Assembly: GCA_044892525.1 (NCBI GenBank)
Contig: CM097885.1
Coordinates: forward strand, 15,874,001 to 15,938,000
Source of the DNA: Schmidtea polychroa
Taxonomy: Eukaryota
Length of the DNA: 64,000 bases
Reading direction: 5' to 3'
Shown here piece after piece: positions 9,101 through 35,904 of the stretch (the stretch's first letter is position 1; each line of letters starts with the position of its first letter). The notes under the pieces are model-generated. The model had not been told where the DNA came from. It did not search any database and was given only the letters and a program-made list of their open reading frames with translations. Made by a program: the position numbers and the translations under genes.

Positions 9101-9153
9101 GTTTCGACCAGTCAGAGGGGAATATTGTTGGTGTGCGCACACAGACGCGAGCA

Positions 9154-9471
9154 ATGGATTGTTGTTTGGAAGTAGGTTTTGATGTAATTTTTTATTGAAT
9201 TGATTTTTGATGTATTTTAATTAGAAATTCGAGATTTGAATGGATTGTTTTGTGGTTTAAAAAAGGTAAAATTCTGGAAGGGAGGAAACCAGTTTTGTTT
9301 ATTGAAATAAGTTTTGGAATCGAAATGTTTGAAGAAGAAGATGTTTATTACAAATTTATTAAAGCTTATGATGTTCCAAACCAAGATCTTATTTCTTATT
9401 TCGATGAAACCCGTGAATTCATTGAAAATGGCAGAAAATTTGGTGGAGTATTGGTTCACTGTCTTGCTGGA
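9154..9471 (+). pseudogene. DUSP12/YVH1-like phosphatase copy 1, 5' part, interrupted by the Polinton
   Basis: Near-identical to 25443-25760; ends at VLVHCLAG exactly where the element starts. Confidence 0.9.
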
Positions 9472-10455
9472 AGTAGTGTGGTTATATACCCAACCAAAAC
9501 AGCCCTCCCAACAAAACATGCCTCCAAATCACTTAAGCTATTAGAAAAACAACCTAAAACTTATACTTTTATAGTATTTTAACCCTATATTTTGAAAACA
9601 ACCACCTTTAATGACTCTAACTGTTTTAATCTTTAAAGCCTCAAACTCAAAAGCTTCAAACTAAAACCATAAAGAGAATAGAAAAGAAAATGGTATTATG
9701 AAAAAGTTAGAAGGCTACTTGAGGATGCCAACTAGCAAGTTGCTAATTGGCTAATTAAAAAAAATAAATGAAATCTTAATCTTGATGTCTTGAAGAATAA
9801 AAAATTTTATGAAAATAGTAAAACTGCTCTGAGAGGACAGTGGTATTTTTTTTTTTCACTGTCCTCTCAACAGTTTTTTTGATCCGGATCATTTTTTTTT
9901 TATTCAACCTCTTTCGTTTATCAAATCTCTTCCAATATACAAGCTGGCCAGGCTCATAATCAGAATCAATTCGATAATAGCAGCACACCTTATTATTCGC
10001 TTCTCGCTCGAATACGATTTCATCGGCGTTTTAAGTGTGCTGCTCGAAAGTACAAATGAATTCGAAAGCGAATCCGAAAGAGGTCCGAAAACAACCGAGA
10101 AATAAATGTGCACATTATGGGATCGATCCGGGTGTGTTCGAAAGACTGGTGGCGATAATTACCGGTTCGCCACCACACCCGTTTCAATATTTTTTTTTTC
10201 ATATTTATGTTTAAAAAATAATTAATTAATAAAAAAATAAAATAAAATAAAATATACAAGTACTTTATAAATATAAGATACCCACACTATTTTCAATATT
10301 ATTTTCAAATTTTTAATATTATTTTATGTTGAAAAAAAACTAACCTCAGATGTGATTTGAACCACTATCCATTTGAACCACTGTGCCAGTCTATTCCCAC
10401 TGCGCCATCAAGGTTTGAATTTTTGTCATTTTTTAAATTTTTAATTTATAAAAAA
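9472..10455 (+). repeat. Left terminal inverted repeat
   Basis: Reverse complement of ~23409-24405 with few mismatches; inner boundary approximate. Confidence 0.95.
10332..10415 (-). ncRNA. Candidate Pol III small RNA, variant copy
   Basis: Minus strand: AACCTTGA TGGCGCAGTGG (A box) ... GGTTCAAATC (B box) ... GAGGTTAG T8. The ends are complementary. Confidence 0.5.
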
Positions 10456-10564
10456 ATAAAATAAAATAAAATAAATAAAATAAAATATACAAGTACTTTA
10501 TAAATATAAGATACCCACACTATTTTCAATATTATTTTCAAATTTTTAATATTATTTTATGTTG

Positions 10565-10647
10565 AAAAAAAACTAACCTCAGATGTGATTTGAACCGCTA
10601 GCATTTTGAACCACTGTGTCAGTCTAGCCCACTGCGCCATCAAGGTT
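10565..10647 (-). ncRNA. Candidate Pol III small RNA, second left copy (in a 233-bp tandem duplication)
   Basis: Same A box, B box and T-run; almost identical to the right-TIR copy. Confidence 0.5.
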
Positions 10648-10887
10648 TGGATTTTTGTCATTTTTTAAAATAATCGATTCAAGTTCTTTTATTCTTTCCT
10701 GTAATTGTTTTATTTTATCTAATCTTTTCTCAGCTACTTCTACTGCATTCATGTAAAAATGTCGATACTTTTCATTCTCTACCACCAACTCTTTAATGTA
10801 TTCTAATGGTTCTTCTTCTCTTCTTTTCATTCTCTTAAGTTTAACTTCATTCAATTCATTTCTCATTCTTTCAATAAAGTCAATCAT
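10624..10887 (-). CDS. Small coiled-coil protein of the Polinton
   Basis: 87-aa charged helical ORF with ATG in AAAAATG context, divergent from the capsid gene. Its stop lies inside the candidate ncRNA. Confidence 0.55.
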   Translation of the reverse strand: MIDFIERMRNELNEVKLKRMKRREEEPLEYIKELVVENEKYRHFYMNAVEVAEKRLDKIKQLQERIKELESIILKNDKNPNLDGAVG

Positions 10888-10972
10888 TTTTATAAATTAT
10901 TTTTTTATTGAATTCCCTTTTATTTTTATTTTTTTTTTCAACTTTTATTTTTATCAACTTTTATATATAAAA

Positions 10973-12265
10973 ATGAATAATATAAATCTTAAAATTCAAG
11001 AAAAAAATAAATTAAATCTTGATTATAATAAAGAATTTACTCATGAAATCAAGAAAAATGATGTACTTAAAATCTCTCCAACTTCAGGATCTATTGCAAA
11101 CTTAAATCGTAGGGGTGATATAGTTTTTCAATCTCTTCAAACATCAAACCCAATAGATATTTGTAATGCCAAATTATATTACAAAGTAGAATTAGAAATT
11201 GAAGCAAACAAAGATATAACCCTAGAAAATAATTTCTTTCCAAATTTATTCTCCAACATGAGATTAAAACTAGGATCATCAGAAATTGAAACTGTTTTAC
11301 ATCCAGGAGTATATTCTACAATGTTAAATTTTATTTTGACTGGTTGTGATTATAAAAATGAATATGGTGAATTAACAGGTTGGATTCCTGACACTAATAA
11401 AGGGGATTTAGATAAAGATGGTTTAGATGTAAACCATGGTTACCATAAAAGAGCTGAACTTTATAAATCTAAAAAATTTGAAGGTTATTTTGAATTAAAA
11501 CACTTGTTTGGATTCCTTCAAAACTATAATCGTATACTTCATAATGTTTTTATAGAATTCATCTGTAATAGAGTAGAAGGTGATAAAAGATTGTTCTATG
11601 GAGCTGTAGATACAAAAGCTAAATTAAAATTATCAACACTTGAATTACATATACCTGAATGGACATTAAACCCACATTCTGAAATCAAACTCCTTGAAAG
11701 ATTAAATTCCAACAAGTCTATAAATGTAAATTATTTAAATAGAATCTGTAGTGAATTTAGTATGACAGAGGGTTCAACATATTCTATAAAGGTAGCAAAT
11801 TTTGCATACCGACCAAGATATATCTTGATTGGATTCAAAGAAACAGATTCATCTTTCCAAAAAAATAACAATCTATTTATTCAAAAGATTGGAGATGATA
11901 ATTTAAAAACAATCCAAATTCAATTAAATAGTTCTTATTATCCAATAAATAGAATGGAATTTAATATTGAAAATAATGAAAACATATTCCCATATCTAAA
12001 TTATATTGAAACATGTTATGATTTCAAAGTTGAACCGCAATTAAGTTTAGAAGATTTCAAAAATTTATATTCTATATTTTGTATAAATGTATCAGACCAA
12101 GATGATCGATTAGCCATAAATAATGTTGATGTTACACTTCATGTAACAAAGGATTCTAATTTTAAAGCTAAAGTATATACATTAATATTAGAAGAAAAGA
12201 AAATAGAAATGAAATTATATGGTGGAAAGATTTCAATTATTGAAAATGTTAGGGGAGATTCTTAA
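10973..12265 (+). CDS. Major capsid protein (double jelly-roll, Polinton PY / hexon-like), ~430 aa
   Basis: Motifs TLENNFFPNLFSNMRLKLG, RPRYILIGF, QLNSSYYP and KNLYSIFCINVS are typical of Polinton MCPs. Start taken at the AAAAATG at 10973. Confidence 0.8.
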   Translation: MNNINLKIQEKNKLNLDYNKEFTHEIKKNDVLKISPTSGSIANLNRRGDIVFQSLQTSNPIDICNAKLYYKVELEIEANKDITLENNFFPNLFSNMRLKLGSSEIETVLHPGVYSTMLNFILTGCDYKNEYGELTGWIPDTNKGDLDKDGLDVNHGYHKRAELYKSKKFEGYFELKHLFGFLQNYNRILHNVFIEFICNRVEGDKRLFYGAVDTKAKLKLSTLELHIPEWTLNPHSEIKLLERLNSNKSINVNYLNRICSEFSMTEGSTYSIKVANFAYRPRYILIGFKETDSSFQKNNNLFIQKIGDDNLKTIQIQLNSSYYPINRMEFNIENNENIFPYLNYIETCYDFKVEPQLSLEDFKNLYSIFCINVSDQDDRLAINNVDVTLHVTKDSNFKAKVYTLILEEKKIEMKLYGGKISIIENVRGDS

Positions 12266-12282
12266 TATTTTAACATTTTAAA

Positions 12283-13698
12283 ATGTCTTTAAATAAACCC
12301 TATTGGAGATGTGAAACTTGTAATTGTCAAGTTACAAGACATCATAAAGCAAGTCGTCTTAAAACTAAAAAACATACAGTAGGTGACCTAATTCCACGAG
12401 CTGGAGGCGATTTGCAATCTTCAAAAACAACATCTTCAATATTAAAACCTTTTACTACAGAAAAATATCCAGGTGAAAGACATTTATTTAAACACAACTA
12501 TACTGGACCAGGAACACGTCTAGATATTAGATTAGATGAAAATAATAATCCCAAACAAGGAGAAGAACCAATAAATAGAATTGATCAAACAGCTTTAAAA
12601 CATGACATTGCATACAATTCAACAAATCTTAGAGATAGACATGTTGCAGATGTGAATTTAATACATGATTTAAATAGTATCCAAAATCCATCAACCCAAG
12701 AAAAGATTCAAAGAGCTCTAGTTAAATTAGCAATGAAAGGTAAGATTTTCATAGGCTTAGGACACAGTCCGATCACCATGGGTGCAAGACTTCCTAGGAA
12801 AGCAAAAGATGTTGCTAATAAAAAGATTATTGAACAAGCAGATGCTGAAAGATCCCTCGAGAATATATCCAAGACTAGTTTATTAACCCCAACAGAATCA
12901 CAAATAAAATATGCCAACGAATTACACCATGAATTTAGAAAAAATAAAAAATATTTAAAAGTTCAAGTACATGAAAAAGATCAAACATGGTCTGCAGATT
13001 TAGTCTTTATGCCAACCAAATCATCAGACCCTGAAAAATATAAAATAATTTTAACTGTAATAGATTTATATACAAGATTTGCTTTTGCAAGACGTTTAGA
13101 AAATAAAACAGGATATTCTATTACAGAAGCATTTGAAAATATATTTGAAGAAAATCAAAGAATCCCAAAATATTTATGGTGTGATAAAGGAACAGAATTT
13201 TATAACAAAGTTTTTACAAAGTTTTTAAATGAAAATGATATTAAATTATATTCAACAGAAAACGAAGGAAAAGCAGTCGTAGTTGAAAGATTAAATAGAA
13301 CATTAAAAAATAAAATGTGGAAATATTTTACTGCTATTGGAAAACAAAAATGGAACAATGAATTGTTACAAAAGATTGTAAATGAATATAATAATGATGT
13401 ACATAGTTCTATAAAATTAACACCTTTAAATGCTTCCATGAAGCCTGAAACCATTAAAGTGGTAAATATTGAAAATGATGTTATTGAAAAACTAAAGTTT
13501 AAAATTGGTGACCGAGTAAGAATATTTAAATATAAAAATAAATTTGAAAAAGGATTCACAGCAAAATGGACAAATGAAATTTTTATTATAAATAAAATAC
13601 ATTATACAACTCCAATAACATATAGCATCTTTGATTTAAATAATGAAAAAATATTAGGTAGATTTTATAATAATGAACTACAGAAAACAGATTTTTAA
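12283..13698 (+). CDS. Zn-finger-like + parvovirus-type phospholipase A2 + retroviral-type (rve) integrase fusion
   Basis: N-terminal CETC...KKH; PLA2 motifs NYTGPGT and IDQTALKHDIAY; integrase DDE motifs WSADL, WCDKGTEF, VVERLNRTLK; C-terminal FKIGDRVRI. One uninterrupted frame. Confidence 0.9.
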   Translation: MSLNKPYWRCETCNCQVTRHHKASRLKTKKHTVGDLIPRAGGDLQSSKTTSSILKPFTTEKYPGERHLFKHNYTGPGTRLDIRLDENNNPKQGEEPINRIDQTALKHDIAYNSTNLRDRHVADVNLIHDLNSIQNPSTQEKIQRALVKLAMKGKIFIGLGHSPITMGARLPRKAKDVANKKIIEQADAERSLENISKTSLLTPTESQIKYANELHHEFRKNKKYLKVQVHEKDQTWSADLVFMPTKSSDPEKYKIILTVIDLYTRFAFARRLENKTGYSITEAFENIFEENQRIPKYLWCDKGTEFYNKVFTKFLNENDIKLYSTENEGKAVVVERLNRTLKNKMWKYFTAIGKQKWNNELLQKIVNEYNNDVHSSIKLTPLNASMKPETIKVVNIENDVIEKLKFKIGDRVRIFKYKNKFEKGFTAKWTNEIFIINKIHYTTPITYSIFDLNNEKILGRFYNNELQKTDF

Positions 13699-13709
13699 GT
13701 CGACAAGCC

Positions 13710-14501
13710 CTAAAACAAACTTTTCCATATTTCAGCTTCTTCTCTATCCAAATAAATATAATTATATTTTTCTTTCCAATGATTATCAACAAACATATCA
13801 AACATATTCTTATCAGGTTCAACATTTGAAAATAAATCATTATAAATCATATTCTTATCACGGCGATCTAATTTAAAAAATATAAAACAATTGGAATTAT
13901 TTCTTATTGAATTTTTATCTAAAGCATAATATGTTTGAGATATATAAATAACATTACAATTATTATGTCGACCTCGTGTAAAGTAACTCTTTTGAATCTC
14001 TTGATTTTTCATATTAACAACATCATCAAATATAACTAGATTCTTTTTATCTTTAGGAAGTAAATCACAATGTAAAACATCTTCAGGTTTATTAGAGAAT
14101 AAAACTTGAATTGCCTCCTGCCCTTCTTCACAAATATAATCATTTTTATTACTAATATCTGATTCTAAAATCTTTTCCTTATACCAATCAACCATATCAC
14201 AAGGTTGATAAACTTCTTCAGGACACCTATGTTGATTTTTAAAAATATCAATTATTGCTTTTTTAGTTAATTTATTTTCAAATCCACATTTCAAAAGTTG
14301 TAATTCTGGTTGATTTATGGTTGTAGAATAAAAGATTAAATTATTATAATCTAAAAAATCATCTTCAAGTAACATTCTCAAAACAAGTACATTCTTTCCA
14401 CATCCAGAAGAACCAACAATTAATAATCTAAAATTATCAGGAAATACTTTATTATTAAATTTACTCTTATGTCTATTTAAAATTGGTTTCCAAATATCCA
14501 T
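13710..14501 (-). CDS. A32/FtsK-like genome packaging ATPase
   Basis: Walker A GSSGCGKN, Walker B LVIFDD, TRGRHNNCNVIYISQ, IRNN. Start taken at ATG 14501. Confidence 0.92.
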   Translation of the reverse strand: MDIWKPILNRHKSKFNNKVFPDNFRLLIVGSSGCGKNVLVLRMLLEDDFLDYNNLIFYSTTINQPELQLLKCGFENKLTKKAIIDIFKNQHRCPEEVYQPCDMVDWYKEKILESDISNKNDYICEEGQEAIQVLFSNKPEDVLHCDLLPKDKKNLVIFDDVVNMKNQEIQKSYFTRGRHNNCNVIYISQTYYALDKNSIRNNSNCFIFFKLDRRDKNMIYNDLFSNVEPDKNMFDMFVDNHWKEKYNYIYLDREEAEIWKSLF

Positions 14502-14516
14502 TTTATTTATTATAAA

Positions 14517-15086
14517 ATGACCTCGAAGAGTTCCTCTACTGAAGAATCTTTGCAAGAATTAATAAATTCAAATAAAAATAAATCAGTAGTAATTGATGGT
14601 AAAAAATATTTTATTGGAAAACATGTAAAAGAACAAGTTAGAGCGAAGCTCCACGAAGCTAAAGAAGGTGGCATTCTTCCATTAGCTGCTTTAATACCTG
14701 CAATCATTGCTGGTTTATCAGGTGCTGCTGGAATAGCTGGAGGAATTGCAACTACAGTTCAAAAAGCTAAAGAATCTCAAAAGACAGACCTAGAAAAAGA
14801 AAAACTACAAACTGAAATCGATTCAATGAAGAAGGTAAGGCAAGCTAAAGGGGGAGTGTCCGTTGGAAAGGGTCTCTATCTTAATCCATATGAGGGGAGT
14901 CGGCAAAAGTCTCAGGGCAAAGGTCTCTATCTAAATGATTTTTTAAAAAATCAAATTTCTACATCTGAATCTTTATCTTCAAAAGATAAAGAAGATTTAA
15001 AAAAGATATGTAAATCTTTAAAGAATGGATGCCTTTGTAAAACTAAAAATGGTAAAGGATTATACTTGAAGCCCTTCGAACTATGA
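14517..15086 (+). CDS. Virion core protein with adenovirus pX-like hydrophobic segment
   Basis: GGILPLAALIPAIIAGLSGAAGIAGG resembles adenovirus pX (GGILPLLIPLIAAAIGAVPGIA). Three GKGLYL repeats. Confidence 0.65.
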   Translation: MTSKSSSTEESLQELINSNKNKSVVIDGKKYFIGKHVKEQVRAKLHEAKEGGILPLAALIPAIIAGLSGAAGIAGGIATTVQKAKESQKTDLEKEKLQTEIDSMKKVRQAKGGVSVGKGLYLNPYEGSRQKSQGKGLYLNDFLKNQISTSESLSSKDKEDLKKICKSLKNGCLCKTKNGKGLYLKPFEL

Positions 15087-15108
15087 TACCATTTTTGATA
15101 CCATTAAA

Positions 15109-15990
15109 ATGGTATATGAAGAAAGATTAGCACTTTTAAAAAAATTACAATCAGAACAAGATAAATATAATAAAAAAGATACAACTCAACATGCTGAATC
15201 TATAATATTAAATGAGGTAATAACACAACAACAGGGGCCAACAATTAAAGCTATAAAAGAGTTGGAAGATTTCAATGAGCAAGCAAAATTTAAAGAGTTA
15301 GAAGATAAAAAACAAAAAATAAAAGAACTAGAGTGGCAGGATAAAGAAAAAGAATCCAGTGAAAACCATCCTGAAAGAAATCAAAGAAAACGCAGAAGAA
15401 TTTCTAATGTGGAAGAAGAAGAAATGTTTTTAAAAACAAAACCTCTTAAAGTTGATCCTAAAATTAGAGATGATTTACCTCCTTCAATTAGACCCACATT
15501 TAATACTAATACTGAAGGATATCAAATAATAACAATTAATAAACAAAACTTTACTTTATATTCAAATTCAGAAAATAAATCACGTATTCATTCACAAAAT
15601 GTTTATAATAATGAATATTTAGACTTTGAATTTACAGATGATTTTTATAGATTACTTTGTGGATATTCTTCAGATGATGTTGAAGAAATTAAAAAATATT
15701 TAAATTTAATAAGATTAATAAGAGCTAGTTCTAAAGCAAAATATATTCAAGATTTAAAGAATTATTTAAATAAAAATGAAAAGGGTTATGTTGTTACAGA
15801 GGGAGAGGGATTAATTAGTGAAGGTGGTAAACCAAATCCCATCAATCTTTTTATTGAATTAAGAAAACTATTAGCTGCAAGGAAAGCAGGACATAATAAT
15901 TTAGATTCTGATATTTTAAAGATTTCTAAAGATTTGTTAAAACAAGGAATAATTTCAAAAGATAAATTTAATAAGTATACGAAGTTATAA
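15109..15990 (+). CDS. Uncharacterised Polinton protein (293 aa)
   Basis: Long ORF in the structural block. The C-terminal NPINLFIELRKLLAARKAGHNN..GIIS resembles a motif I recall from Maverick-associated proteins. Confidence 0.65.
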   Translation: MVYEERLALLKKLQSEQDKYNKKDTTQHAESIILNEVITQQQGPTIKAIKELEDFNEQAKFKELEDKKQKIKELEWQDKEKESSENHPERNQRKRRRISNVEEEEMFLKTKPLKVDPKIRDDLPPSIRPTFNTNTEGYQIITINKQNFTLYSNSENKSRIHSQNVYNNEYLDFEFTDDFYRLLCGYSSDDVEEIKKYLNLIRLIRASSKAKYIQDLKNYLNKNEKGYVVTEGEGLISEGGKPNPINLFIELRKLLAARKAGHNNLDSDILKISKDLLKQGIISKDKFNKYTKL

Positions 15991-16012
15991 ATACGAAGTT
16001 TTAAAATACAAA

Positions 16013-16477
16013 ATGACTCCTTCAATATTAGATTTTTTAAAAACATTTGGAATAAATGCAAAAACAAATTTTGATTTAAAAGATTATGCAAATTATTTAA
16101 ATTTAAAAATTAAAATATTAATGAATGATGAATTATCAAGTCTGGAGAGTCCCCTGAATATAATAATCAATTATCAAAATTCAAATGAAAAAGGATCTCA
16201 TTGGGTTTGTATATATAAGAAATCTATCTACTTTGATTCTTTTGGGATTAAACCTACTAAAGAAGTTGAAGATTATCTCTTGAGGGGTTCTCCGATTGAT
16301 TCCCCAAATGGTTATACTTTTAACTCTTTACAAGTTCAACCTTTGAATACTAAAATATGTGGTATTTTAAGTTTATATGTTTTGTATAGATTGAATAAGG
16401 GAGAGGGAAAGGGGCATACGCAGGATTTTAAATCTATAATTCAAGAAATTTATAATGATCTAGAATCTCTACTATAA
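16013..16477 (+). CDS. Adenain-like cysteine maturation protease
   Basis: GSHWVC (His), YFDSFG (Asp), QVQ and ICG (Cys) in the order of Polinton/adenovirus proteases. Confidence 0.92.
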   Translation: MTPSILDFLKTFGINAKTNFDLKDYANYLNLKIKILMNDELSSLESPLNIIINYQNSNEKGSHWVCIYKKSIYFDSFGIKPTKEVEDYLLRGSPIDSPNGYTFNSLQVQPLNTKICGILSLYVLYRLNKGEGKGHTQDFKSIIQEIYNDLESLL

Positions 16478-16525
16478 GGATTTTTACTATAAGGATTTTT
16501 ACTATATGAATTTACTACTAAAGAA

Positions 16526-17290
16526 ATGGAGCTTCACAACCCTCCGGAAGATAATTTAAAAAAAATGGTAAACATAATGTCAGATAAATATTCAAGAACT
16601 TTATCTATAAATTCAAAAGAATCAGACTTTACTATAAACTTTCAAGATTCAATTAAATTAGATCAAAATTTAAATTATGAATTGGGGCTATTATGGTTTT
16701 GTGCTTATAATACTATTTTTAATATAACTAAAGATAATAATAAATTTACTATTCAAACTCGTGATGGGCATAAACCAGAAATTATAACAATAGAACCTGG
16801 GGCATATGAGATAAAAGATTTAAATGATATACTTTCTAAAAAATCAAATGAAGGTATTAAAATTAAAATGGATATACCAACTTCAAAATGTGTAATGACT
16901 TTGAAGAATATAAAAATTAGTTTTTTAGATAATTGTTTCTTTCACACAGTTTTAGGATTTAAACCTATGGATATAACAATAAAAGAAGATAAAATAATAA
17001 CATCAGAACATATTATAAAAATAATAAATACAAACACAATAAATATTCATTGCGATTGTATAACAGGTTCTTATAATAATGGTAAACAAACAAATGTTTT
17101 ATATTCCTTTCCCTCAAACACAGTTCCTATGGGATATAAAATAGTTGAAAGAATGAATCCTCCAAATTATTTACCTTTATGTAGAAAATATATAATGGAT
17201 ATTAATTTTAAAATTCTTAATCAAGAAGGAGAATTGATTGATTTTAATGGAGAAGAGATTTCAATGTATTTACATTTGAAACAGGTTTGA
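16526..17290 (+). CDS. Minor capsid protein (penton, single jelly-roll)
   Basis: IEPGAYEIKDLN, VLGF, INIHCDCITGSY.NG..TNVLYSF, YLPL, NQEGELIDFNGE. Start codon uncertain. Confidence 0.82.
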   Translation: MELHNPPEDNLKKMVNIMSDKYSRTLSINSKESDFTINFQDSIKLDQNLNYELGLLWFCAYNTIFNITKDNNKFTIQTRDGHKPEIITIEPGAYEIKDLNDILSKKSNEGIKIKMDIPTSKCVMTLKNIKISFLDNCFFHTVLGFKPMDITIKEDKIITSEHIIKIINTNTINIHCDCITGSYNNGKQTNVLYSFPSNTVPMGYKIVERMNPPNYLPLCRKYIMDINFKILNQEGELIDFNGEEISMYLHLKQV

Positions 17291-17314
17291 AGATTCATTT
17301 TAAATTATTAATAA

Positions 17315-18325
17315 ATGAGTTCTTATATTCCATGTAATAGAGGTGGTGGAACAATAAAAACAGGGTTTAATACAGAAGAAATATTAACTTTAACAGAAAA
17401 TAAATATATTAATGAAAGAGGTGATTCAATGAAGGGTGATTTAATTTTAAATGGACACAAGATAAAAGAATTATCTTTTCCAACTGATGAAGCTGATGCA
17501 GTTAATAAGAAATATGTAGATGGTGTTAAAAAATATACTGATTTAACAACAACAAGAATTGAAAGTTCATTAACAACAAAAATTGATTCAATGGAATCAA
17601 AGCTTAATAATATCGAACAACGATTTAATGATAAATTTGACAAGTTACAAAGTCTGTTAACTGAACAAGTTGTAAAGTTAAATACTGCTATATTAAATTC
17701 TAAAGATAAACAAATTATGAATACTAAATTTAATACAATATATAAAATAATAAATGAGATGATTACATCATTTAATAAAAGAATTTCAAATTTAGAGTCT
17801 CATGGAACACACATTAACACCACACATAGTATTAGAAAAAGAGCTGCTGAATTAGAACAGAATAAAACATTATTACCCCATACATATAAACATTTTATAG
17901 AACCAAGTTTAATAACAACAAACAGTAAAGAATGGGGTGTTTTTATGGTTGTAAAGATTATTGATCCTTATTTCTTTTTGTTTGATGATGATAATGAAAG
18001 AATGAAATGGTTTGTGAAATGTGATTATAATAGTAAGCTTGAAAAGGGTGATGTTATAATGACTAGTTATGATTTACCACACGGAGATTGGTATGTTAAT
18101 ACTCATTCAAATGGACTACATAAAGTTAAAAGTAAGAATATTATTTTTAAAAGCACACTTGTACAATATATAGATTTAATATTTTATGAAAAAAAGGTTG
18201 ATGTTGATGAAGTTCGTAAAGCATTGAGAGAATTGTATAAAGATATCCTCTCAACAAGAGTTTCTTTTGATATCCGAGTATTGGTGCCAGATGGTGCTCA
18301 GAAGAATAAAGTCTTATTTTTTTAA
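17315..18325 (+). CDS. Putative fibre/receptor-binding protein
   Basis: GDSMKGDLILNGHKIKELSFPTDEADAVNKKYVD matches a fibre-type motif. It is followed by a coiled coil and a globular C-terminus, and lies directly after the penton gene. Confidence 0.55.
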   Translation: MSSYIPCNRGGGTIKTGFNTEEILTLTENKYINERGDSMKGDLILNGHKIKELSFPTDEADAVNKKYVDGVKKYTDLTTTRIESSLTTKIDSMESKLNNIEQRFNDKFDKLQSLLTEQVVKLNTAILNSKDKQIMNTKFNTIYKIINEMITSFNKRISNLESHGTHINTTHSIRKRAAELEQNKTLLPHTYKHFIEPSLITTNSKEWGVFMVVKIIDPYFFLFDDDNERMKWFVKCDYNSKLEKGDVIMTSYDLPHGDWYVNTHSNGLHKVKSKNIIFKSTLVQYIDLIFYEKKVDVDEVRKALRELYKDILSTRVSFDIRVLVPDGAQKNKVLFF

Positions 18326-18333
18326 TTATTAAA

Positions 18334-18930
18334 ATGGAAGAAGTAAGAGAAGAAAAAATTTACCCAGAATTGAGATCATCAGGATATTATTCTTCCAAGG
18401 CCTCGGCTCCCACAGAACTTGAAATTATGAGAGTAAAAGAATTTAAATCAGAAACCTTACATTTACAAGATTTATTAAAGCATTATAAAAAAATTAAAAA
18501 TAGATGGAATAAAGGGAATACAGTTTTAAAAGTTATAGGTTATTCTTTAGGATTTGCATCTGCAATATTAACAGTTATTTTACCCATAACTTTACCAGTT
18601 GTTACTCTTGCACCTGTAATACTTGGAAGTATTTCTGTGGCTGATGGTTTCTTAACTGAAATAGTTTCATTATCTTATACTTCTAAAAAGAAAAGTTTAT
18701 ATAGAGAAGTTTGTTTATCAATAGAATTAGGAATCTCTAAATTATTTTTATTTCAATTAAAAGCTTTGGAAGATGGAATCCTGACAGACGAAGAAATAAT
18801 GAAATCAAATCAAATAATACAAGATATAAAGAATGAGGTTATAAGATTAAAAAGGGAGGGCATGGTGGCTAATGTTATAAGTAATAAAAAAACATCTCGA
18901 GAAAAATGGTTAAAGAATTCTTATTTATAA
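18334..18930 (+). CDS. Two-helix membrane protein (adintovirus 'GasderminX'-like)
   Basis: IYPEL..SAP, central hydrophobic hairpin, KALEDGILTDEE. Family assignment is from recalled motifs. Confidence 0.55.
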   Translation: MEEVREEKIYPELRSSGYYSSKASAPTELEIMRVKEFKSETLHLQDLLKHYKKIKNRWNKGNTVLKVIGYSLGFASAILTVILPITLPVVTLAPVILGSISVADGFLTEIVSLSYTSKKKSLYREVCLSIELGISKLFLFQLKALEDGILTDEEIMKSNQIIQDIKNEVIRLKREGMVANVISNKKTSREKWLKNSYL

Positions 18931-19024
18931 AATGGGTTTATTTTTAAAAAAGTAGATCAGGTTGCTATAGTTGCTTAAATTAATTGTCGACATTTTATTA
19001 TTAAAAAATTAAATATCGTTGGTT

Positions 19025-22000
19025 TCAGTTATGGTTGAAAGCCAACCTTTGAATCATTAATTTATGATCTTTAAATTCTTTATCACTTAGACCTTTTATA
19101 TATTCAGGATCAGTATTAAAATATTTAAGTTCTAAACATATAGGATTAAAAACTTGAGAATATAAAGGCTTCTCGATTTCTCTCTTGGGATAAATAATTT
19201 CAACATTATAAATATCAAGATCAGTAATCTTTGTATCATATAACTTATTCAACTTTTCTAGATTTTTTATTATAGGGATTAAATTATTTCCAATAGGTAG
19301 AGTTGTCTTTAAATCACTTAGTATGAATCTCTTATCATCATAATTTGATAATGATACTTTTTGAGATTCTATCAAGTGAATATCATGGTTTTCACTTTTA
19401 AGTTGATGTATTTCATCAATTTTATCTTTATGATTTGGATTCAATGCATCTATATAATCTTGATGAGAAAGATTCTTTGCAACCACTCTCGGTATTCCTT
19501 TACATCTGTTATCCTTTACAGGTTTTTCTTCTTGTCCCTCTGGTCCTTTAGGAAATATAGGATATCTATGTGTAATGGTTTCTTCTGTTTCTGGAGTTTT
19601 AAATATAAATGATCTAGTTATAAATTCAGGGTTTCTAAATGTTTCGTATGAATATTGTTTAGCACGAATAAATATTCCATTTTCTATAGGAGTAAAAGGT
19701 TTTTCATCTTTAAACGAAAATAGTTCTCCAGTTGAATTTATTAAATTTGAAAGTATAGGATTTTCAGCTATATCTCTTTGTAAATCATGAGTTCTTATTG
19801 TTAAAAACATTGAATCTGTATCCATTGCATGCATTGATATATTAGAACCATATATAGGTTGTAAGATGTTATAATATGTTTCATACATTTGTAATTTTGA
19901 AAGTTCTAAAATTGAAAACCCTATAAATATTGGTTTGTTGTATGTTTTCTCAAAACTCTTTAGTTCTATTGCAGTAAGACTTTCAGAAAATACTTGTGCG
20001 TTTTTAAATGTAGGCTTTCCTAGCATACGATTATAACGCTTAATATCTTTGGCAGTATTAGTTAGGAGTTCAATATGAGTATATTTATCAACATTCTCCA
20101 TTGTCTTCCCAAAGACTGAATTGTTTAAAAGTTTATAATTATTATCTTTAAAAAGGTTACCTTCTCTTTTTGCAATGTTTCGACACCTAATGTTCTCCTC
20201 GATAAAAGCTTTCATGAATGGAGCTTGTTTAAATCTTATGACACTATGAACTTTTTTTAATATCATTCCTCGTGAGAGATAAAATTGGAGGAGTCTATAG
20301 TGACAAAGATAAAACCTTCGATCTGTTTGATCACAAAGAAGTTTCATTGTTGGAGGTTTATCTTGTGAGATTTGCCATTCAGAAAGTTCGTTGATATCAA
20401 TCTTTCTTCTTATGGGAGCTAAAGGAAAATATCTTGTTCCTGATTTTATATCATCTGGATAGTCGAGGTCACATTCTATAAAGTAACCTATTGGAAAATC
20501 TTTCGACGTTGAAAGTATTTCTTTCATAAGGTCATCTGTTGGGTTCTCTATTCCAGTGAAATCACTCATTGGTAAATATTGAGTCATAATTCCTGAATAT
20601 AAAGCTGTTGCATCTATATAAAGTATAAATATAGGATTTTTCATTGTTTCTAATAATTCTTTTAATTCCTCATTGTTAATTTTCATATATGGATCATCAG
20701 GGTGTTTAGAGAGTCTTCGGCTAGTAGTTATTGCATTTCTAGCTTTTATTTCTCTATTCCCCATTACTGAAGAGACTCCTCCTCTAATGTTTGTTTTAAT
20801 TTGGTTAAACATATCGAGGTTAGTTAAAAGATCTATAATTTTATCAGCATCTTCTATATTTGAAGTCCAAATGGTATATAACATAGTATCCCAAGCTAAA
20901 GAGGGTGCAGTTATATAATTATAAGGTTTAAGAACAAAAGAGTTTGTAAATTCTTCAAAGCAATCTGCTAGAATATAAACATCTAAGGATAAATACATGT
21001 TGGTATATTCTCCTAAAGTTTTACACTTGAATAATTCCCACATTTTTAATGCTCGAGAATATTCTTGATCTGTAATCCCTGATTGTAGTAAGTTTGAAAA
21101 GAAATCTTCTTTGTTAGGAAGACTTGTTTCATTATATCTTTCAAACGAGTCAACATAGTCATAAGGATATATTTCCTTTTGCTAAACATGTAGGATATTC
21201 TTCTAGAGGAATATTATTTTTTTCCAAGAATTCTCGAGTGATTTTAAAATTTTCTGGTTTCATTGTTTTTGCTACTGCATCTAAAGACATTTGGAGAAAG
21301 TTTAACGAGTCTATAAATTTTAATTTTCCATATTCAATTGATTTATATTTTTCCTTTGTTAAGCCGATAACTTTGAAAGAGTTTTTAGCATTTGCTGCGA
21401 GGTGTTTAATAAATAGATGTATGTCATATCCAAAAAGATTATGAAATATAACAGGTATAAATTTAGGAGTATGACAATTAAGATTGCAATTTTTATGAGC
21501 TGCTCCTCGATAATTATTTTCCTTTTTTAAATGATCATGATCTATAACTTTTTCATCAGGAAGAATATTCTGTTTACACATCCAACAGTTGGAAGTATTT
21601 TCATATTCTTGTTGTTGTTGATTAGAAATATTTTTGAGGATACTTTGTTTTTAATATTTTAAATATTTCATGTTCTAGATCATTTATATTTTTAGTAAAA
21701 TGATTCAAGACTTCTGTTTCTGAAATTCCTCGAAATGTATATTCTCTAGATTCTATGAGTTCAGGATAATTACTTTTAAATAATAATTTATAAGCAGATG
21801 GTAATTGTTTAGTTTTTTTAACACTATTAGGTTTATTTCTTTTTCTTAGAAAGGCTTTCATCCTCTCTGGTTTCATCTTCTCTCCTGAGGAGTTCCAGGA
21901 ATCCATGAGTTTATTTTTTTCTATTATTTTTAAATATTGATAAACCAAATCTTGTTTATGGTTTATAGATTCAAAGTCACCATAAAGAACTCCAACTGTT

Positions 22001-23381
22001 TGTAGTAAATTTGAAAAGTTTTTAAAATATATCTTGGGATTATTAGGCATTTTAATTAAAGCTGGATCATCTTTTTCACAAAGTCTTGTATGTTTAATCA
22101 TAGAGTTTTAGTTGTTGAATAATGAAGACATCTTTTACATGTTCCTCCTCCACTAGTTGGATTCTCTGGTGATGTAAAAGCTTGAAAGTTTTTTATTAAA
22201 ACATAATATTGATTATTTTGTTGTTCCAAGATTAAAAGATATATCTCCCTAGTGTTATCCTGCGGTTCGTTATCTCTAACTTCATAATCTGAAATATAAA
22301 TTGGAATAATTTCTCTGCTATTAACATGTTTCCCTTTAACACGTTCATAAATATTAATTTTAAGATTATTTAAACTTTCAAATTTTGGAATGTCTTCTAG
22401 TTTCATTGGATGTTTGAATCCTTTGGGAAATATTAATTCATTTTCATATTGTTTGTATTTTGAAACTCTTTGGGGATTTGTTGCTTGAGGATGTAAATGT
22501 GCAAATATTGACCAGATGAAACATTTGTTATCATTATTCTGTACATTTATAACATTTTTAGATTTAAAGGGTGTAGGAATATAAGATTTAGGATTGGGTG
22601 GTAATCTTCTCCAATAATCAATCACTAAAGTTTGGAAAGAGTTGAATACTAAGTTTGAATCTCCTAATTCATTTTCTACTTCCTCTTGTTTTGCTTCTGC
22701 TGCTTTAATTATTTCTTTGATGGTTTTATCAAATCCTTTAATTGAAAATAAATATTTAAAAGGTATTCCAATTTCAACATCTAAGGGTGTTGTCTTTTCT
22801 TCTGCTCCTCGCCAGTATTTTGCTTTGATTATAATTTTATATTTTATAACATTATACCTTGTCGGTTTATAATTTTTTAAAGCTTCAGTGAAAGAATTTT
22901 TAATATTTTTTTTATTTTTATTTATATATTCTCCAGGAGTTGCAGGCCCATTAATTTTTAATTGAAATTCATCTATATGATTAAAATTATCCCAGTTATA
23001 TTTTTCTCTTTCAACATGATCAGGTTCTCCTTCTGAATGACATTCCTCATCGTCAGAATTTTGTTTTTTATTTTTACATTCTTTTATATCTTCTAAATAA
23101 TAGAAATTTAGTTTTGTTGAAAAGTTACAATGAGGACATGTAAATATTTCTCTATTTTTCCCGATACAATTTTCAAAATGTTTATTATATCCAGAAAATA
23201 GAAATCTTCCTTTACATTTAAGACAAAGTTTTGAATTTGTATCATTAAGATTATTTTCTTTTAATAAATGAGCTTTCGATTTTAAGTGAGAAATTAATCC
23301 AGTTTTATTTTTAAAAACTTTATTGCAAATATTACAATTCATTTTTAGAAAAAAAATTTTTATTGGATACCCTGTTTTCAT
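19025..23381 (-). pseudogene. Protein-primed family B DNA polymerase (~1440 aa), split by three 1-nt indels
   Basis: N-terminal Zn fingers, NVQNNDNKCFIWS, YGDFES, FHNLFGYD, FIDS, KG(I)YPYDY, YIDATALY, KLLNNSVFGK, DTDS, DDKR. Frame changes near 22107, 21633 and 21173, each in an A run. Confidence 0.93.
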
Positions 23382-23408
23382 TTTATTTTTTAAGATTTAT
23401 ATTATTCA

Positions 23409-24405
23409 TTTTTTATAATAAAAATTTAAAAAATGACAAAAAATCCAAACCTTGATGGCGCAGTGGGCTAGACTGACACAGTGGTTCAAAATGCTAGCGG
23501 TTCAAATCACATTTGAGGTTAGTTTTTTTTTCAACATAAAATAATATTAAAAATTTGAAAATAATATTGAAAATAGTGTGGGTATCTTATATTTATAAAG
23601 TACTTGTATATTTTATTTTATTTACTTTATTTTATTTTATTTTTTTATTAATTAATTATTTTTTAAACATAAATATGAAAAAAAAAATATTGAAACGGGT
23701 GTGGTGGCGAACCGGTAATTATCGCCACCAGTCTTTCGAACACACCCGGATCGATCCCATAATGTGCACATTTATTTCTCGGTTGTTTTCGGACCTCTTT
23801 CGGATTCGCTTTCGAATTCATTTGTACTTTCGAGCAGCACACTTAAAACGCCGATGAAATCGTATTCGAGCGAGAAGCGAATAATAAGGTGTGCTGCTAT
23901 TATCGAATTGATTCTGATTATGAGCCTGGCCAGCTTGTATATTGGAAGAGATTTGATAAACGAAAGAGGTTGAATAAAAAAAAAATGATCCAGATCAAAA
24001 AAACTGTTGAGAGGACAGTGAAAAAAAAAAAAATACCACTGTCCTCTCAGAGCAGTTTTACTATTTTCATAAAATTTTTTATTCTTCAAGACATCAAGAT
24101 TAAGATTTCATTTATTTTTTTTAATTAGCCAATTAGCAACTTGCTAGTTGGCATCCTCAAGTAGCCTTCTAACTTTTTCATAATACCATTTTCTTTTCTA
24201 TTCTCTTTATGGTTTTAGTTTGAAGCTTTTGAGTTTGAGGCTTTAAAGATTAAAACAGTTAGAGTCATTAAGGGTGGTTGTTTTCAAAATTTAGGGTTAA
24301 AATACTATAAAAGTATAAGTTTTAGGTTGTTTTTCTAAGCTTAAGTGATTTGGAGGCATGTTTTGTTGGGAGGGCTGTTTTGGTTGGGTATATAACCACA
24401 CTACT
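23409..24405 (-). repeat. Right terminal inverted repeat
   Basis: Mirror of 9472-10455; ends CACACTACT. Confidence 0.95.
23448..23531 (+). ncRNA. Candidate Pol III small RNA, right-TIR copy
   Basis: A box TGGCGCAGTGG 23456-23466, B box GGTTCAAATC 23499-23508, T9 at 23523-23531, terminal stem AACCTTGA/TTGAGGTT. Confidence 0.55.
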
Positions 24406-24505
24406 GCTGGAAGATCAAGAAGTGGAATTATTTTGACGGCTTATTTAATGAAACATTTTAAAGTTGGTCCAAACGATGCGATTGAGACAATTAAGGAAAA
24501 GTCAT
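24406..24505 (+). pseudogene. DUSP12-like copy 1, 3' remnant
   Basis: Resumes AGRSRSGIILTAYLMKHF identical to copy 2, then breaks off at 24505. Confidence 0.9.
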
Positions 24506-25318: not shown

Positions 25319-25442
25319 TGTTTCGACCAGTCAGAGGGGGATTGCCTCTGACTGGCATTTATTCGGTTTCTTTTTCTATCGCGTCTGTGTGCGCGGTCTG
25401 GTTAGACTGAATATTGTTGGTGTGCGCACACAGACGCGAGTA

Positions 25443-26160
25443 ATGGATTGTTGTTTGGAAGTAGGTTTTGATGTAATTTTTTATTGAATTGATTTTTGAT
25501 GTATTTTAATTAGAAATTCGAGATTTGAATGGATTGTTTTGTGGTTTAAAAAAGTTAAAATTCTGGAAGGGAGGAAACCAGTTTTGTTTATTGAAATAAG
25601 TTTTGGAATCGAAATGTTTGAAGAAGAAGATGTTGATTACAAATTTATTAAAGCTTATGATGTTCCAAACCAAGATCTTATTTCTTATTTCGATGAAACC
25701 CGTGAATTCATTGAAAATGGCAGAAAATTTGGTGGAGTATTGGTTCACTGTCTTGCTGGAAGATCAAGAAGTGGAATTATTTTGACGGCTTATTTAATGA
25801 AACATTTTAAAGTTGGTCCAAACGATGCGATTGAGACAATTAAGGAAAAGTCATTTATATGTCCAAATGATGGATTCATGAAACAATTAAAGATATATTT
25901 CAACATGAATATCAGTGATGAAATCAACAAATGCGCAAATACAGTTTCTCAAGCTCAATTTAAGTTATCAGCATCTTCAAAAGATTTAGTTCAATTCAAA
26001 TGTAGAAAGTGTCGATTTTTATTATTCGACAATTCAAGTGTTGTTGAGCACAGTAAAATGAAAGCTTCGAAAGCAATAAATGAAAGCACAATTTGCAATG
26101 AGGAAATACTTATCGAAGCTCTTCCTTGGAATGATAGCAGCAATGCAGACGGGGAAATGA
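25443..26160 (+). CDS. DUSP12: DUSP12/YVH1-like dual-specificity phosphatase copy 2; C-terminal Zn domain incomplete
   Basis: VLVHCLAGRSRS, AYLM, PNDGFMKQL, then FKCRKCRFLLF..EH..C..IEALPW. The later Cys clusters are not seen and the 5' structure is uncertain. Confidence 0.7.
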
Positions 26161-26212
26161 AAATGACAGTGTTAAAGAATAAAATATTAATGATTTATTT
26201 GGATCTTATTCA

Positions 26213-26420
<208 letters not shown>

Positions 26421-26699
26421 TAACAGTCTCATATTATATTTTAAACAATTTAAATATTATTTGGAATATTTTATAAGATACAATAATATGAGTTATTTCA
26501 TTTTATTCATATTTGTTTGTGTGCTAAATTTCATCTTTTTACAAAAACATTTTCTCAATAATAAACTATTGTTTAGATTATATTTTCATGTAGTAATATG
26601 AAAGCGAAACAATTTTTTATTTCTCTTTCATCTGTAACAATAAAGTTAATTTCGACCAAATTATATTAATTATTAATTAAAATTATTTTCTTCAATTTA

Positions 26700-32680: not shown

Positions 32681-33104
32681 ATAGAATCAATTTAATTAAG
32701 TGTCAATTAGGCATTGCATTGATCACAGATTTCATAAAATTATACAAATATTCGTTACAATTTAATTTTTTATTGTGTTAAATCTAATCCAATTTATCAA
32801 TATTGCTTTGTGCATTTGATGTTTTATCATTGCAACTATGTCACAATAAAATGTTATAAAATTATAATTTAAATAATTTTGTAATATTTAAAATAAATGA
32901 GAAAAAAATTAACATTAATAATATTTTGATTTGCGCTAAAAGTTAAAAAACAATATTTATAAAATGTTTGTTTATCTACATCAAAATACAAATTATAAAT
33001 ATTGAAATTGTCAACGTCAGAGGAAATAATTAATATAATAAGTATGATTTATGATTGTTGTAAAATGTTGAAATATTTTGATAATATTGTTAATTTTAGA
33101 TAAA

Positions 33105-34964
33105 ATGTTTGCAATCGTATGGGAAATGATGAAGAGGAATAAATTTGAATTTGATAATGAAATCAGCATTGAATTGATATGCAGAATTTGCAAGTGTTTA
33201 ATGATAAAAGCTTGCAATGCTCCTTGCGGTTGTCGCTTTTGTTCTGATTGCATTGAGCAATATTTGGATGGAAAAGATAAATTCTGTCCAGGAGCATCAA
33301 AACATTGTGGAAAGAAAATGATCAATTTCAAAAAAGATGTTTCTGAAGATCATGCAGCCAATTTAAGGATTTCAGAAGTGATAGTGAGATGCCCAATGCA
33401 AAATTGTCAATTCAAAGATGAATTAGAAGTGATGGAAAGCCACATGAGTACATGCACCAAGAACACTGATCAGATCAGTAATATATGCAATGAGATGCAA
33501 GCAATGAGAGATGAGAATGTGACATTGCGTAATGAAATTATCAATATCAATGTAAAATTTTATTTGTAATTAATTTTATTGATATTTGTGATTGTAGGTG
33601 AAACAGAGCAATATTGAAAGGAAAGAGGCGGAGAACAAAGGAGAAATAGAAGAATTGAATGAGGAAATGGTGGCATTGAAGAATGCGAACCGCTCATTGA
33701 GAATGGATATGGAGACAAATATTGGATCAATCAGTCAAGTTTGATTATTGGTTTGATTTACTATTGATTTGTTATTGACGCAAAGCAGGTCAGACAGCAA
33801 ATTGAGGCGATTGAATCAAAATGTCAACAGCAAATTGATGAGATGAGAGAGAAATGCGAACAGCGGCTGCAACAAGGGGATGAAAAGGTGATTTATTGAT
33901 TTATTGAAATATTTGATTTTGAGATTCAGTTGCAGCTTGAAATGGCGAAATGCGCCAATGATATACGGCAGAATGAATCAAAATATCAACATCAAATTGA
34001 TGAGTTGAAAGAGAAATGCGAGCAACGTTTGCAACAGGTCAGACTGCAAATTGAGGCGATTGAATCGCCTCAAATGAGAGAAATAATTCAATTGGCATTT
34101 TTAATTATTATCTTGATGCTCATGGCAGCTCAAATTCGGCAGAATGAAACAAAATGTCAACAGCAAATTGATGAGACGAAAGAGAAATACGAGCAGCAGT
34201 TGCAACAGGGGAATGAAAAGGTGATTTATTGATTTATTGAAATGTTTGAATTTGAGATTCAGTCGCAGCTTGAAATGGCGAAATATGTCAATGAAATTCG
34301 GCAGAATGAATCAAAATATCAACATCAAATTGATGAGATGAAAGAGAAATACGAGCAGCGGTTGCAACAGGGGAATGAAAAGGTGATTTATTGATTTATT
34401 GAAATGTTTGAATTTGAGATTCAGTCGCAGCTTGAAATGGCGAAAAGCGCCAATGAAATTCGGCAGATTGAAACAAAATTAGCAAATGAAAAATATATAA
34501 ATTATGGATTTTTTGAATGGCAAATCGATAAATTTTCACAAGAAAAGAGAAATGAAATTATTTACAGCGAGGCATTTTATTCCGGGCCAATCGGTTACAA
34601 AATGTGCTTGTGGGTGGGGACTAGTGGTGATTTGTTTGGGATTTTTAATTGGGTTAATGTTGGTTTCTGTTTGATGCGTGGGGCAAATGATGAGCAATTG
34701 GATTGGCCGTTCAATCAATCCGTGACAATCGATGTGATCGATCCAGAAAATGGCAACATTTATATGAGCAAGTTTATGAAATATTCAGATCGCCCTCTTG
34801 ATGCCGGATGGAGGAAACCGTCACAAGACAGAAATGATCCAATTGGCATTTATTATGAGTATTATGATGTCAGCTCAATCTATAAATTAGCAGCCAAAAG
34901 TGATAAATTGCTGCTCAGGTGCAGAATTGAAAAATTCTTACAAATTAAAAAAACAAATCAATAA
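33105..34964 (+). CDS. TRAF-like gene copy 2 (spliced)
   Basis: RING and MATH domains joined in frame by introns 33552-33597, 33739-33788, 33888-33929, 34221-34262 and 34383-34424. In-frame loss of the second Zn finger. Confidence 0.8.
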
Positions 34965-35904
34965 AAATTGATTTATTTTGGCTTTTGATTTGTTTTATTG
35001 TTTGCATTTTTTATTATATTTATTATATGAGATAATTATTGTGGTAATTATTGTCATTCTCGCCTTCCATCCGATATCATCATCACTTGGCGGAGCGCTC
35101 ACAGCAAATTGCCAATTGCAATATCAACATCAATTATATAATTAAATAAAAGCAATTTAATTAAATCAAAACATTTAATATAAATTTGAATAATTATTAT
35201 AATTAAATTAATAATTAATTTGAAAGAAATGAAATTAAAATTCACCCGAATATAAGCGCTGACAAATCGCCTCAACAAATCAAACGCTCCTATGACGAGT
35301 GGAACTGACGAAAAAACCGCCGCTGATGTTATATGAGTTTTGGATAAATTATTGCTGTACTGAATGGCAGTAAAATGCACCTAAATGCAATACTAACACC
35401 GCGTTATATCAAATTGAATTCTTTGAATTTTACTTATTAACAAACAACGAAATTTATCTTGAAATCTTGAAATTATAAAAAAGGGGATCATTTAGGAAAT
35501 TTATAAATGAGGTTTTAAAGTGAAGTTGAGTCCAATACCTAATCTACATCAATACCTTGTGGTGATAAGTGACGGTTATGGAGTTTAAGGCGGGGGGGTT
35601 ATTTATAAAATTTATAAATTATAATCTTAAATTAAACGTAAGTTGAGCATACATAATAAAGTAATTTACATTAGCGAATTTGGTACTTGATTGATGGTCA
35701 TATTACTTGAGGGGCATAAATGAAATTATAATTTTAAAATTCAAAATTTTAATTAGACATTTCTAAGAAAACAATTTACATTAATACATTTAGGATGAGA
35801 TTAGTAGCAGTGGCACTTTAAGAGGTCAAAAATAAAATTTGTAAATTAATATTTTAATTCTCAAATACAAGATGAATAAATATATAGATAATCTATATTA
35901 GGGA

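Follow-up and report, generated by a model that had tools for sequence, protein, structure and literature searches.

Pseudo-tRNA units and a structured block in the terminal repeats of Schmidtea polychroa Polintons: a candidate RNA polymerase III cassette

Both ends of a Polinton in the Schmidtea polychroa genome carry a cassette that combines short units, in which A and B boxes stand at tRNA spacing ahead of an oligo-T run, with a longer block that has a predicted strand-specific fold. This cassette is a real, selected feature, and its sequence suggests that the element likely makes noncoding RNAs of its own. The boxes are constrained in the short units and a fold is constrained in the long block; a Pol III module would account for this most simply. 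We put the probability at about one-half that the pseudo-tRNA units recruit Pol III and TFIIIC as a barrier or booster for the neighboring structured Polinton RNA, a reading built on sequence comparison and structure modeling.

The DNA analyzed, here called the window, is a 64-kb stretch of an S. polychroa contig, and all coordinates refer to it. Polintons are integrating relatives of adenoviruses and virophages. The Polinton/Maverick copy in the window spans 14.9 kb (positions 9472 to 24405, no strand assigned), has AGTAGT...ACTACT ends, and encodes a double-jelly-roll (DJR) capsid, a PLA2+rve integrase, an A32-type ATPase, and a protein-primed PolB (pPolB) in two open reading frames (ORFs). 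It is flanked by 6-bp target site duplications (TSDs) with the sequence GCTGGA (9466 to 9471 and 24406 to 24411, both plus strand); the pPolB, rve integrase, packaging ATPase, DJR capsid, terminal inverted repeats, and 6-bp TSD together identify it as a Polinton/Maverick. The left terminal repeat (9472 to 10669, minus strand) contains two short units, in tandem repeats of about 232 bp, and the long block, and the right terminal repeat (23376 to 24405, plus strand) contains one short unit and the long block.

A few observations on the element and its surroundings can be added. The pPolB domains are split over two ORFs (19025 to 21581, minus strand), likewise in the relatives examined. A 465-bp ORF (16013 to 16477, plus strand) has an adenain-like protease motif by eye, and a metagenome relative of it gave a weak Peptidase_C5 match (E value of 0.013); no TBP match was found for positions 21622 to 22101. 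The Polinton interrupts a copy of a dual-specificity phosphatase gene within its HCxAG catalytic motif (9120 to 9471 and 24412 onward). An uninterrupted, 99% identical phosphatase stretch is located at 25409 to 25762, and a DSPc ORF at 25614 to 26423. A host gene block with TRAF/MATH genes recurs every 30 to 31 kb or so (1500 to 3400, 32800 to 35000, and 63000 to 64000), and the window also holds a 19-bp minisatellite (43279 to 44200) and an LTR-type integrase ORF with H2C2 and rve domains (38466 to 39698). Elsewhere in the genome, the host tRNA-Lys, tRNA-Arg, tRNA-Cys, and SRP RNA genes form long single-type tandem arrays (loci L031 to L060, L157 to L160, and L205 to L208).

The short unit of the right repeat, here type A, occupies positions 23449 to 23531 on the plus strand. 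The first-pass annotation had described in it an A box, a B box preceded by a second GGTTCAAA, a terminator of eight to nine T's, and complementary ends, and all of these are present. The A box, TGGCGCAGTGG, lies at 23456 to 23466, and its only commonly variable column is an A/G choice that the consensus allows; the B box, GGTTCAAATC, lies at 23499 to 23508; the earlier GGTTCAAA copy lies upstream of the B box at 23483 to 23490; a T9 run at 23523 to 23531 is a predicted Pol III terminator; and the paired ends (23449 to 23455 with 23513 to 23519) include two G·U pairs. The three outward-pointing copies that had been reported were likewise found, with A boxes at 23456 (plus strand), 10639 (minus strand), and 10407 (minus strand). 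The left inner copy (10565 to 10646, minus strand) is 98% like the right copy, and the left outer copy (10332 to 10414, minus strand) is 90% like it.

The geometry of the short unit is exactly that of a tRNA gene: the A box lies 7 nt after the paired 5' end, and the distance from the A box to the B box is 43 nt. The T9 run begins 14 nt past the B box. An A box and a B box inside the unit, spaced as in a tRNA gene, and an oligo-T run past the B box are the sequence features of a type 2 Pol III gene. Arrangements of an A box, a B box, and T5 occur only three times in the 64 kb, all of them outward, against a mean of 0.017 in 60 order-2 Markov simulations of the window. The absence of a tRNA cloverleaf, also reported earlier, was borne out: ARAGORN called no tRNA gene in the window, and Rfam searches over the short-unit core gave no tRNA or VA family match (18 weak hits with E values of ≤10). 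Relaxed ARAGORN calls appeared on both strands and were rejected as noise. The short unit has no stable fold (z score of +0.2; −0.3 to +0.9 for the three window copies), and a fold was absent in six of the seven short units tested, the exception being a unit of another type (type C, z score of −2.2; see below). The tRNA geometry, the missing fold, and a second A/B pair, again at 43-nt spacing, at 23705 and 10172 go beyond the first-pass annotation.

Among 77 distinct type A copies, selected by capsid protein or by long block, 1.2% of the B-box cells are variant, compared with 8 to 13% in the spacer and flanks. Columns with more than 10% variants number 0/10 in the B box, 1/11 in the A box (the allowed A/G), and 33/126 in the flanks and spacer; the contrast between boxes and flanks/spacer gives a Fisher P value of 0.046, or 0.004 if A/G is allowed. 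Diverged units were collected with a pattern that excludes the second GGTTCAAA (50 overlapping matches). They retain both boxes, the distance between them, and the T run, but the spacer sequence is another one; no paired ends and no second GGTTCAAA were seen in these subfamilies. Across subfamilies, conservation thus extends to the A and B boxes but not to the spacer, the second GGTTCAAA, or the paired ends. Spacer comparisons of the window unit with types C and D gave z scores of −0.1 and −0.6, and the tRNA spacing is maintained across five unrelated spacers.

An 87-aa ORF (10624 to 10887, minus strand), charged and coiled-coil-like by eye, crosses the left inner A box and stops before the B box. 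This unannotated ORF, which is found in many copies, is located where the capsid gene gives way to the left repeat, and it ends within the short unit or just ahead of it. Of 63 units, 18 have such an ORF ending between the boxes and 8 have one that stops short of the A box; 37 have none, and in no unit is the B box reached. Thus, conservation of the A box and its upstream sequence may be partly coding, given the 18 units with an overlap, and the B box is the clean signal. Across the aligned sequences, constraint on the short units falls on the promoter boxes.

The cassette is tied to Polinton ends in every sample that we drew from the 781-Mb genome. A DNA search (40 loci scored out of 1,513 candidates) kept 30 loci, all of them in Polinton ends. 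A box pattern for one variant gave 1,220 matches and none in the control, and the first 30 by position were again all in Polinton ends; for the long-block boxes there were 2,826 matches and none in the control, with 30 Polinton ends among the first 30 matches listed, 25 of which have an intact short unit upstream. These three sets of 30 loci overlap in part and are samples rather than a full census. Loci picked by capsid protein carry the type A unit in 25 of 30 cases and the long-block boxes in 26 of 30, never on the inward strand. At 18 distinct loci with diverged units, a Polinton gene lies alongside in 17, a long block is present in 17, and at least one of the two is present in all 18. The element is present in over a thousand copies in the S. 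polychroa genome.

These data bear on the idea that a host tRNA-derived SINE has inserted into the Polinton terminal repeat. A tRNA-type head with A and B boxes and a high copy number (the 1,220 matches to a single variant pattern) would suit a SINE. However, every sampled copy lies within a Polinton end, including the 18 diverged-type loci with a Polinton gene or long block, which argues that the unit is not a SINE; and there is no SINE body, A-rich tail, or simple-repeat tail, the T run coming straight after the B box. A tRNA-derived SINE was therefore largely rejected on these samples and is hardly credible; the dispersed host SINE, one of the refuting outcomes named in the first-pass annotation, was not seen in them.

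The long block (23695 to 24080, plus strand) is a candidate Pol III RNA of about 370 nt and sits about 170 bp downstream of the short unit on the same strand. It starts with an A-like box (23705 to 23715) and a B-like box (23748 to 23758) that are 43 nt apart, as in the short unit. A covarying helix (23834 to 23842 with 23889 to 23897), a G·U-rich hairpin (about 23900 to 23960), and a terminal hairpin (24000 to 24059) follow, all on the plus strand, with T4, T4, and T6 runs at 24056, 24064, and 24075. The mirror block in the left repeat (9799 to 10182, minus strand; outer limit estimated from the mirror) has its A-like box at 10172 and its B-like box at 10129. For positions 23695 to 24066, the predicted folding energy is −125 kcal/mol (z score of −7.6) on the outward strand and −107 kcal/mol (z score of −5.3) on the inward strand.

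To the alignment of the long block, 23 of 88 distinct copies contributed, picked for diversity; 3 of the first 26 rows were dropped. RNAalifold predicted 63 pairs, 11 of which are changed on both sides. In four helices, derived from the same aligned sequences that were then scored, 98.7% of the cells are paired, compared with 45 to 51% in slid controls, and 9 of 48 pairs are changed on both sides; 7 of these 9 double changes belong to a single helix and separate one and the same pair of subfamilies, so that they possibly reflect few events. G·U cells outnumber A·C cells by 133 to 4, and the outward strand is the more stable one in 23 of 23 rows. The hairpin at 23899 to 23966 has z scores of −4.7 as outward RNA, +0.1 as inward RNA, and −1.4 as DNA, whereas the helix with the seven changes, the head, and the terminal hairpin, taken as DNA, fold similarly on both strands. 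Taken together, the structure models show a strand-specific, covarying fold of the long block.

An internal T4 run at 23786 is present in type I long blocks, and therefore Pol III might stop early there and shorten type I transcripts; 5 of 23 rows have no run of four or more T's. T5 avoidance was considered and dropped: T5 is absent from 19 of 23 rows, but a row would be expected to contain just 0.3 to 0.6 such runs, and T5 is also missing from 48 of 97 background windows. Rfam returned no family for the long block and no VA match in five sister loci (E values of ≤0.5). An SRP (7SL)/Alu origin was rejected by a shuffle test, in which 49 of 300 shuffles scored as high as the long block against the host SRP RNA (232 of 300 for the 5' ends); the metazoan SRP RNA itself is present in the genome at 241 bits.

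Sister copies carry two further unit types, C (tRNA-Cys-like) and D, both absent from the window's copy. They are found in a left-end segment of about 490 bp (L065 positions 1978 to 2050 and about 2200 to 2290, both minus strand, and L064). The number of short units per Polinton end varies between copies, up to four. Among capsid-picked loci, the order D-C-A-LONG is the commonest (13 of 30 in one set and 6 of 30 in another), and A-LONG-D(-C) occurs in 3 of 30. Type C matches the Rfam tRNA model at 32.4 bits (cutoff, 29; E value of 1e-4). Its D- and T-arms are intact and its acceptor and anticodon stems are broken; with no cloverleaf in the window units either, none of these qualifies as a functional tRNA. 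From the A box to the anticodon, type C and the host tRNA-Cys(GCA) agree in 25 of 29 columns, and a Cys-type B box is common to types A, B, and C. Because the spacer similarity of types A and C is weak (z scores of −0.1 to 2.8) and the comparison covered three host tRNAs, tRNA-Cys is a plausible rather than an established ancestor of type A.

The cassette is dispensable. Of the 30 loci retrieved with the Pfam capsid family, 12 lack a unit in the surrounding 1.3 kb or so. Wider sequence was retrieved for 6 of the 12: 5 are elements whose inverted ends are short and in which 30 kb contains no A/B pair, and the sixth adjoins a cassette-bearing copy. The cassette-less Polintons (L239 to L253) have capsids 86 to 90% identical and PolB 55 to 61% identical, and their inverted ends measure 128 to 349 bp, several being palindromic internally. 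Their end motif gave 129 matches, compared with 2,826 for the long-block boxes, i.e., it is about 20-fold rarer, a rough ratio because the two patterns differ in strictness, and one that shows no cause. In a capsid tree of one gene and 33 rows (two loci with short matches excluded), the earliest branch consists of type II copies that have the cassette, and copies lacking it are interspersed among those that carry it. Near-identical capsids also occur with and without a nearby cassette. Both observations indicate that ends have been swapped or lost, and Polinton ends have probably been exchanged between elements. The two capsid searches (30 loci kept in each) covered capsids 86 to 99% like that of the window and no more distant Polinton family. 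In scans of viral contigs, no relative of the cassette was found in other organisms; 12 metagenome loci with capsids of 25 to 52% identity have no A/B pair, yet none of them shows a terminal repeat.

The proposed mechanism would run as follows. A captured tRNA gene may have given rise to the type A unit through tandem duplication and drift. TFIIIC and Pol III would bind the short unit and produce short U-tailed transcripts that have no fold of their own. The units could then exert a barrier or booster effect of the tDNA type against host silencing and hold the element ends open, and Pol III would also transcribe the long block, starting at the A/B pair of that block; the resulting hairpins could supply the small-RNA machinery or obstruct it. 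The fullest version, a Polinton counter-silencing module in which a pseudo-tRNA array shields the ends and drives a hairpin RNA of about 370 nt that is diced into guides or jams Dicer/PIWI, is possible but rather doubtful. As background, tDNA barriers require TFIIIC and Pol III (PMC2040200), Polintons in a planarian are piRNA targets silenced by nuclear PIWI with H3K9me3 (PMC8532177), and Mavericks are reported to have expanded in planarians (10.64898/2025.12.11.693146). Orientation is a counterpoint: every short unit faces outward, but the yeast barrier described in PMC2040200 works either way round.

For positions 10290 to 10690, no RNA run is listed among those that contain the sequence, which speaks neither for nor against expression. 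Contigs from 4 of the 23 sequencing runs listed were compared with the region from 23000 to 24405. Those from X3, X6, and X11 match only AT-rich stretches and leave the unit core uncovered. X1 contigs, which have the organism label of the DNA runs and whose RNA nature is a guess, cover the short unit, its upstream sequence, and the long block; strand, level, and ends are not readable from contigs, so that this coverage is given no weight here. The summed depth of X1 is very uneven and peaks before the A run at 23976 to 23985.

Three other readings compete with a Pol III module that acts through its boxes. In one, which we regard as unlikely, the short RNAs themselves are the product, namely, abundant U-tailed decoys of 75 to 90 nt that would sequester La, enzymes of tRNA processing, or Argonaute/PIWI proteins. 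The complete set of A box, B box, and terminator, the single orientation, the up to four units per end, and the D- and T-arms retained in type C speak for decoys; however, between the boxes neither structure nor sequence is conserved, and PKR, the target of the adenovirus model, is, as far as is known, a vertebrate protein. La binds any Pol III oligo-U end, so that no fold would be needed, but VA RNAs are highly structured molecules of about 160 nt that inhibit PKR at about 10^7 copies per cell (PMC4378190, in the part available). A role of the 80-nt unit as a VA-like structured decoy is thus not supported: the unit is unstructured (z score of about 0), and diverged subfamilies conserve neither the spacer nor the second GGTTCAAA nor the paired ends. 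A TFIIIC-bound insulator, the second option of the first-pass annotation, would, judged by sequence, be the better fit.

The remaining two readings do without Pol III or without function. It is distinctly unlikely that the long block acts as DNA or within a Pol II transcript, with the boxes being protein-binding sites or coding sequence and having no Pol III role; replication or packaging hairpins on a displaced strand, or a 3' untranslated region of the small left-end ORF, are variants that we rate jointly at this same level. Three of the four structured parts do fold well as DNA on both strands, palindromic ends exist in cassette-less relatives too, and the A box is crossed by the 87-aa ORF. 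Against this, stability of the G·U-rich hairpin is confined to RNA of the outward strand, the B box is in no reading frame and yet is the most constant part, and tRNA spacing is kept across the unrelated spacers. Still less probable, and in our view very unlikely, is a neutral relic, in which host tRNA genes were captured once, hitchhike in the terminal repeats, and are homogenized by Polinton replication. Type C is indeed recognizable as a tRNA-Cys pseudogene, cassette-less elements exist, and the number of units differs between copies, but the replacement of spacers while the boxes stay, and the compensatory changes in the long block, are at odds with neutrality.

A terminal Pol III cassette would offer a concrete, testable mechanism by which Polintons could remain active despite silencing by piRNAs and heterochromatin. 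It would add a transposon-like invertebrate virus to those with Pol III noncoding RNAs and would mean thousands of additional TFIIIC sites across the host genome. The fullest version described above, if true, would give Polintons their first VA/TMER-like RNA system and would help to explain the roughly 20-fold excess of cassette-bearing over cassette-less ends. The same genome provides a natural control, the cassette-less near relatives, as well as hundreds of near-identical copies; therefore, ChIP and Northern signals should show easily.

Viral Pol III noncoding cassettes are known; VA RNAs, Epstein-Barr virus EBERs, MHV68 tRNA-microRNA (miRNA) chimeras, and Pol III hairpins of foamy viruses and bovine leukemia virus (BLV) are described in the available part of PMC4378190. 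For a Polinton-end variant, we found no published description in titles and abstract openings, which mention no Pol III cassette or structured RNA in Polinton ends (subscription papers, Repbase, and supplements being mostly outside this search), and the term "tRNA" does not occur in the accessible portion of PMC6431247.

Among relatives of Polintons, tRNA-derived sequences are shared with polinton-like viruses (PLVs), virophages, and MELD viruses. PLV and virophage genomes gave 558 Rfam tRNA matches among 8,300 (PMC12220804, in the part available), and predicted tRNA genes are flagged in a figure legend of PMC8502044. These tRNAs were called by ARAGORN or Rfam and, in the text available, are read as codon compensation. 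Unlike them, the Polinton units fail ARAGORN, have broken stems, and form a terminal array that flanks a structured block. tDNA barriers and extra-TFIIIC sites resemble the Polinton units, as proposed here, in that the function would lie in the boxes rather than in the RNA and in the position at a border between element and host. As far as PMC2040200 is available, such barriers are host loci that work in either orientation, whereas the Polinton units are borne by a mobile element and all face outward.

The cassettes of foamy virus long terminal repeats and the pre-miRNA cassettes of BLV are likewise integrated Pol III hairpins, located in terminal repeats in simian foamy virus (PMC4378190, available part). 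Those are retroviruses with verified miRNAs, whereas the Polinton hairpins are predicted and lie within a longer block. The MHV68 TMERs, as presented in the same source, share with the Polinton cassette virus-borne, tRNA-like Pol III promoters beside long hairpins that end in oligo-T. In TMERs, the tRNA and the hairpins form one transcript that is cut by RNase Z, whereas each Polinton short unit has its own T7 to T9 run; the Polinton long block has its own A/B head in front of its hairpins, and this head has no cloverleaf and is followed by an internal T4. Finally, adenovirus VA RNAI/II and Epstein-Barr virus EBER1/2 are, like the Polinton units, tandem noncoding units with Pol III signals in a linear double-stranded DNA element. 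The Polinton belongs to the same broad lineage as adenoviruses, and its long block is highly structured, as is VA RNA. It differs in having an unstructured short unit of about 80 nt and a long block of about 370 nt, both placed in the terminal repeats and neither matched by an Rfam family. Of the two, the modeled fold makes the long block, rather than the 80-nt unit, the better candidate for an analogue of VA RNAs and TMERs.
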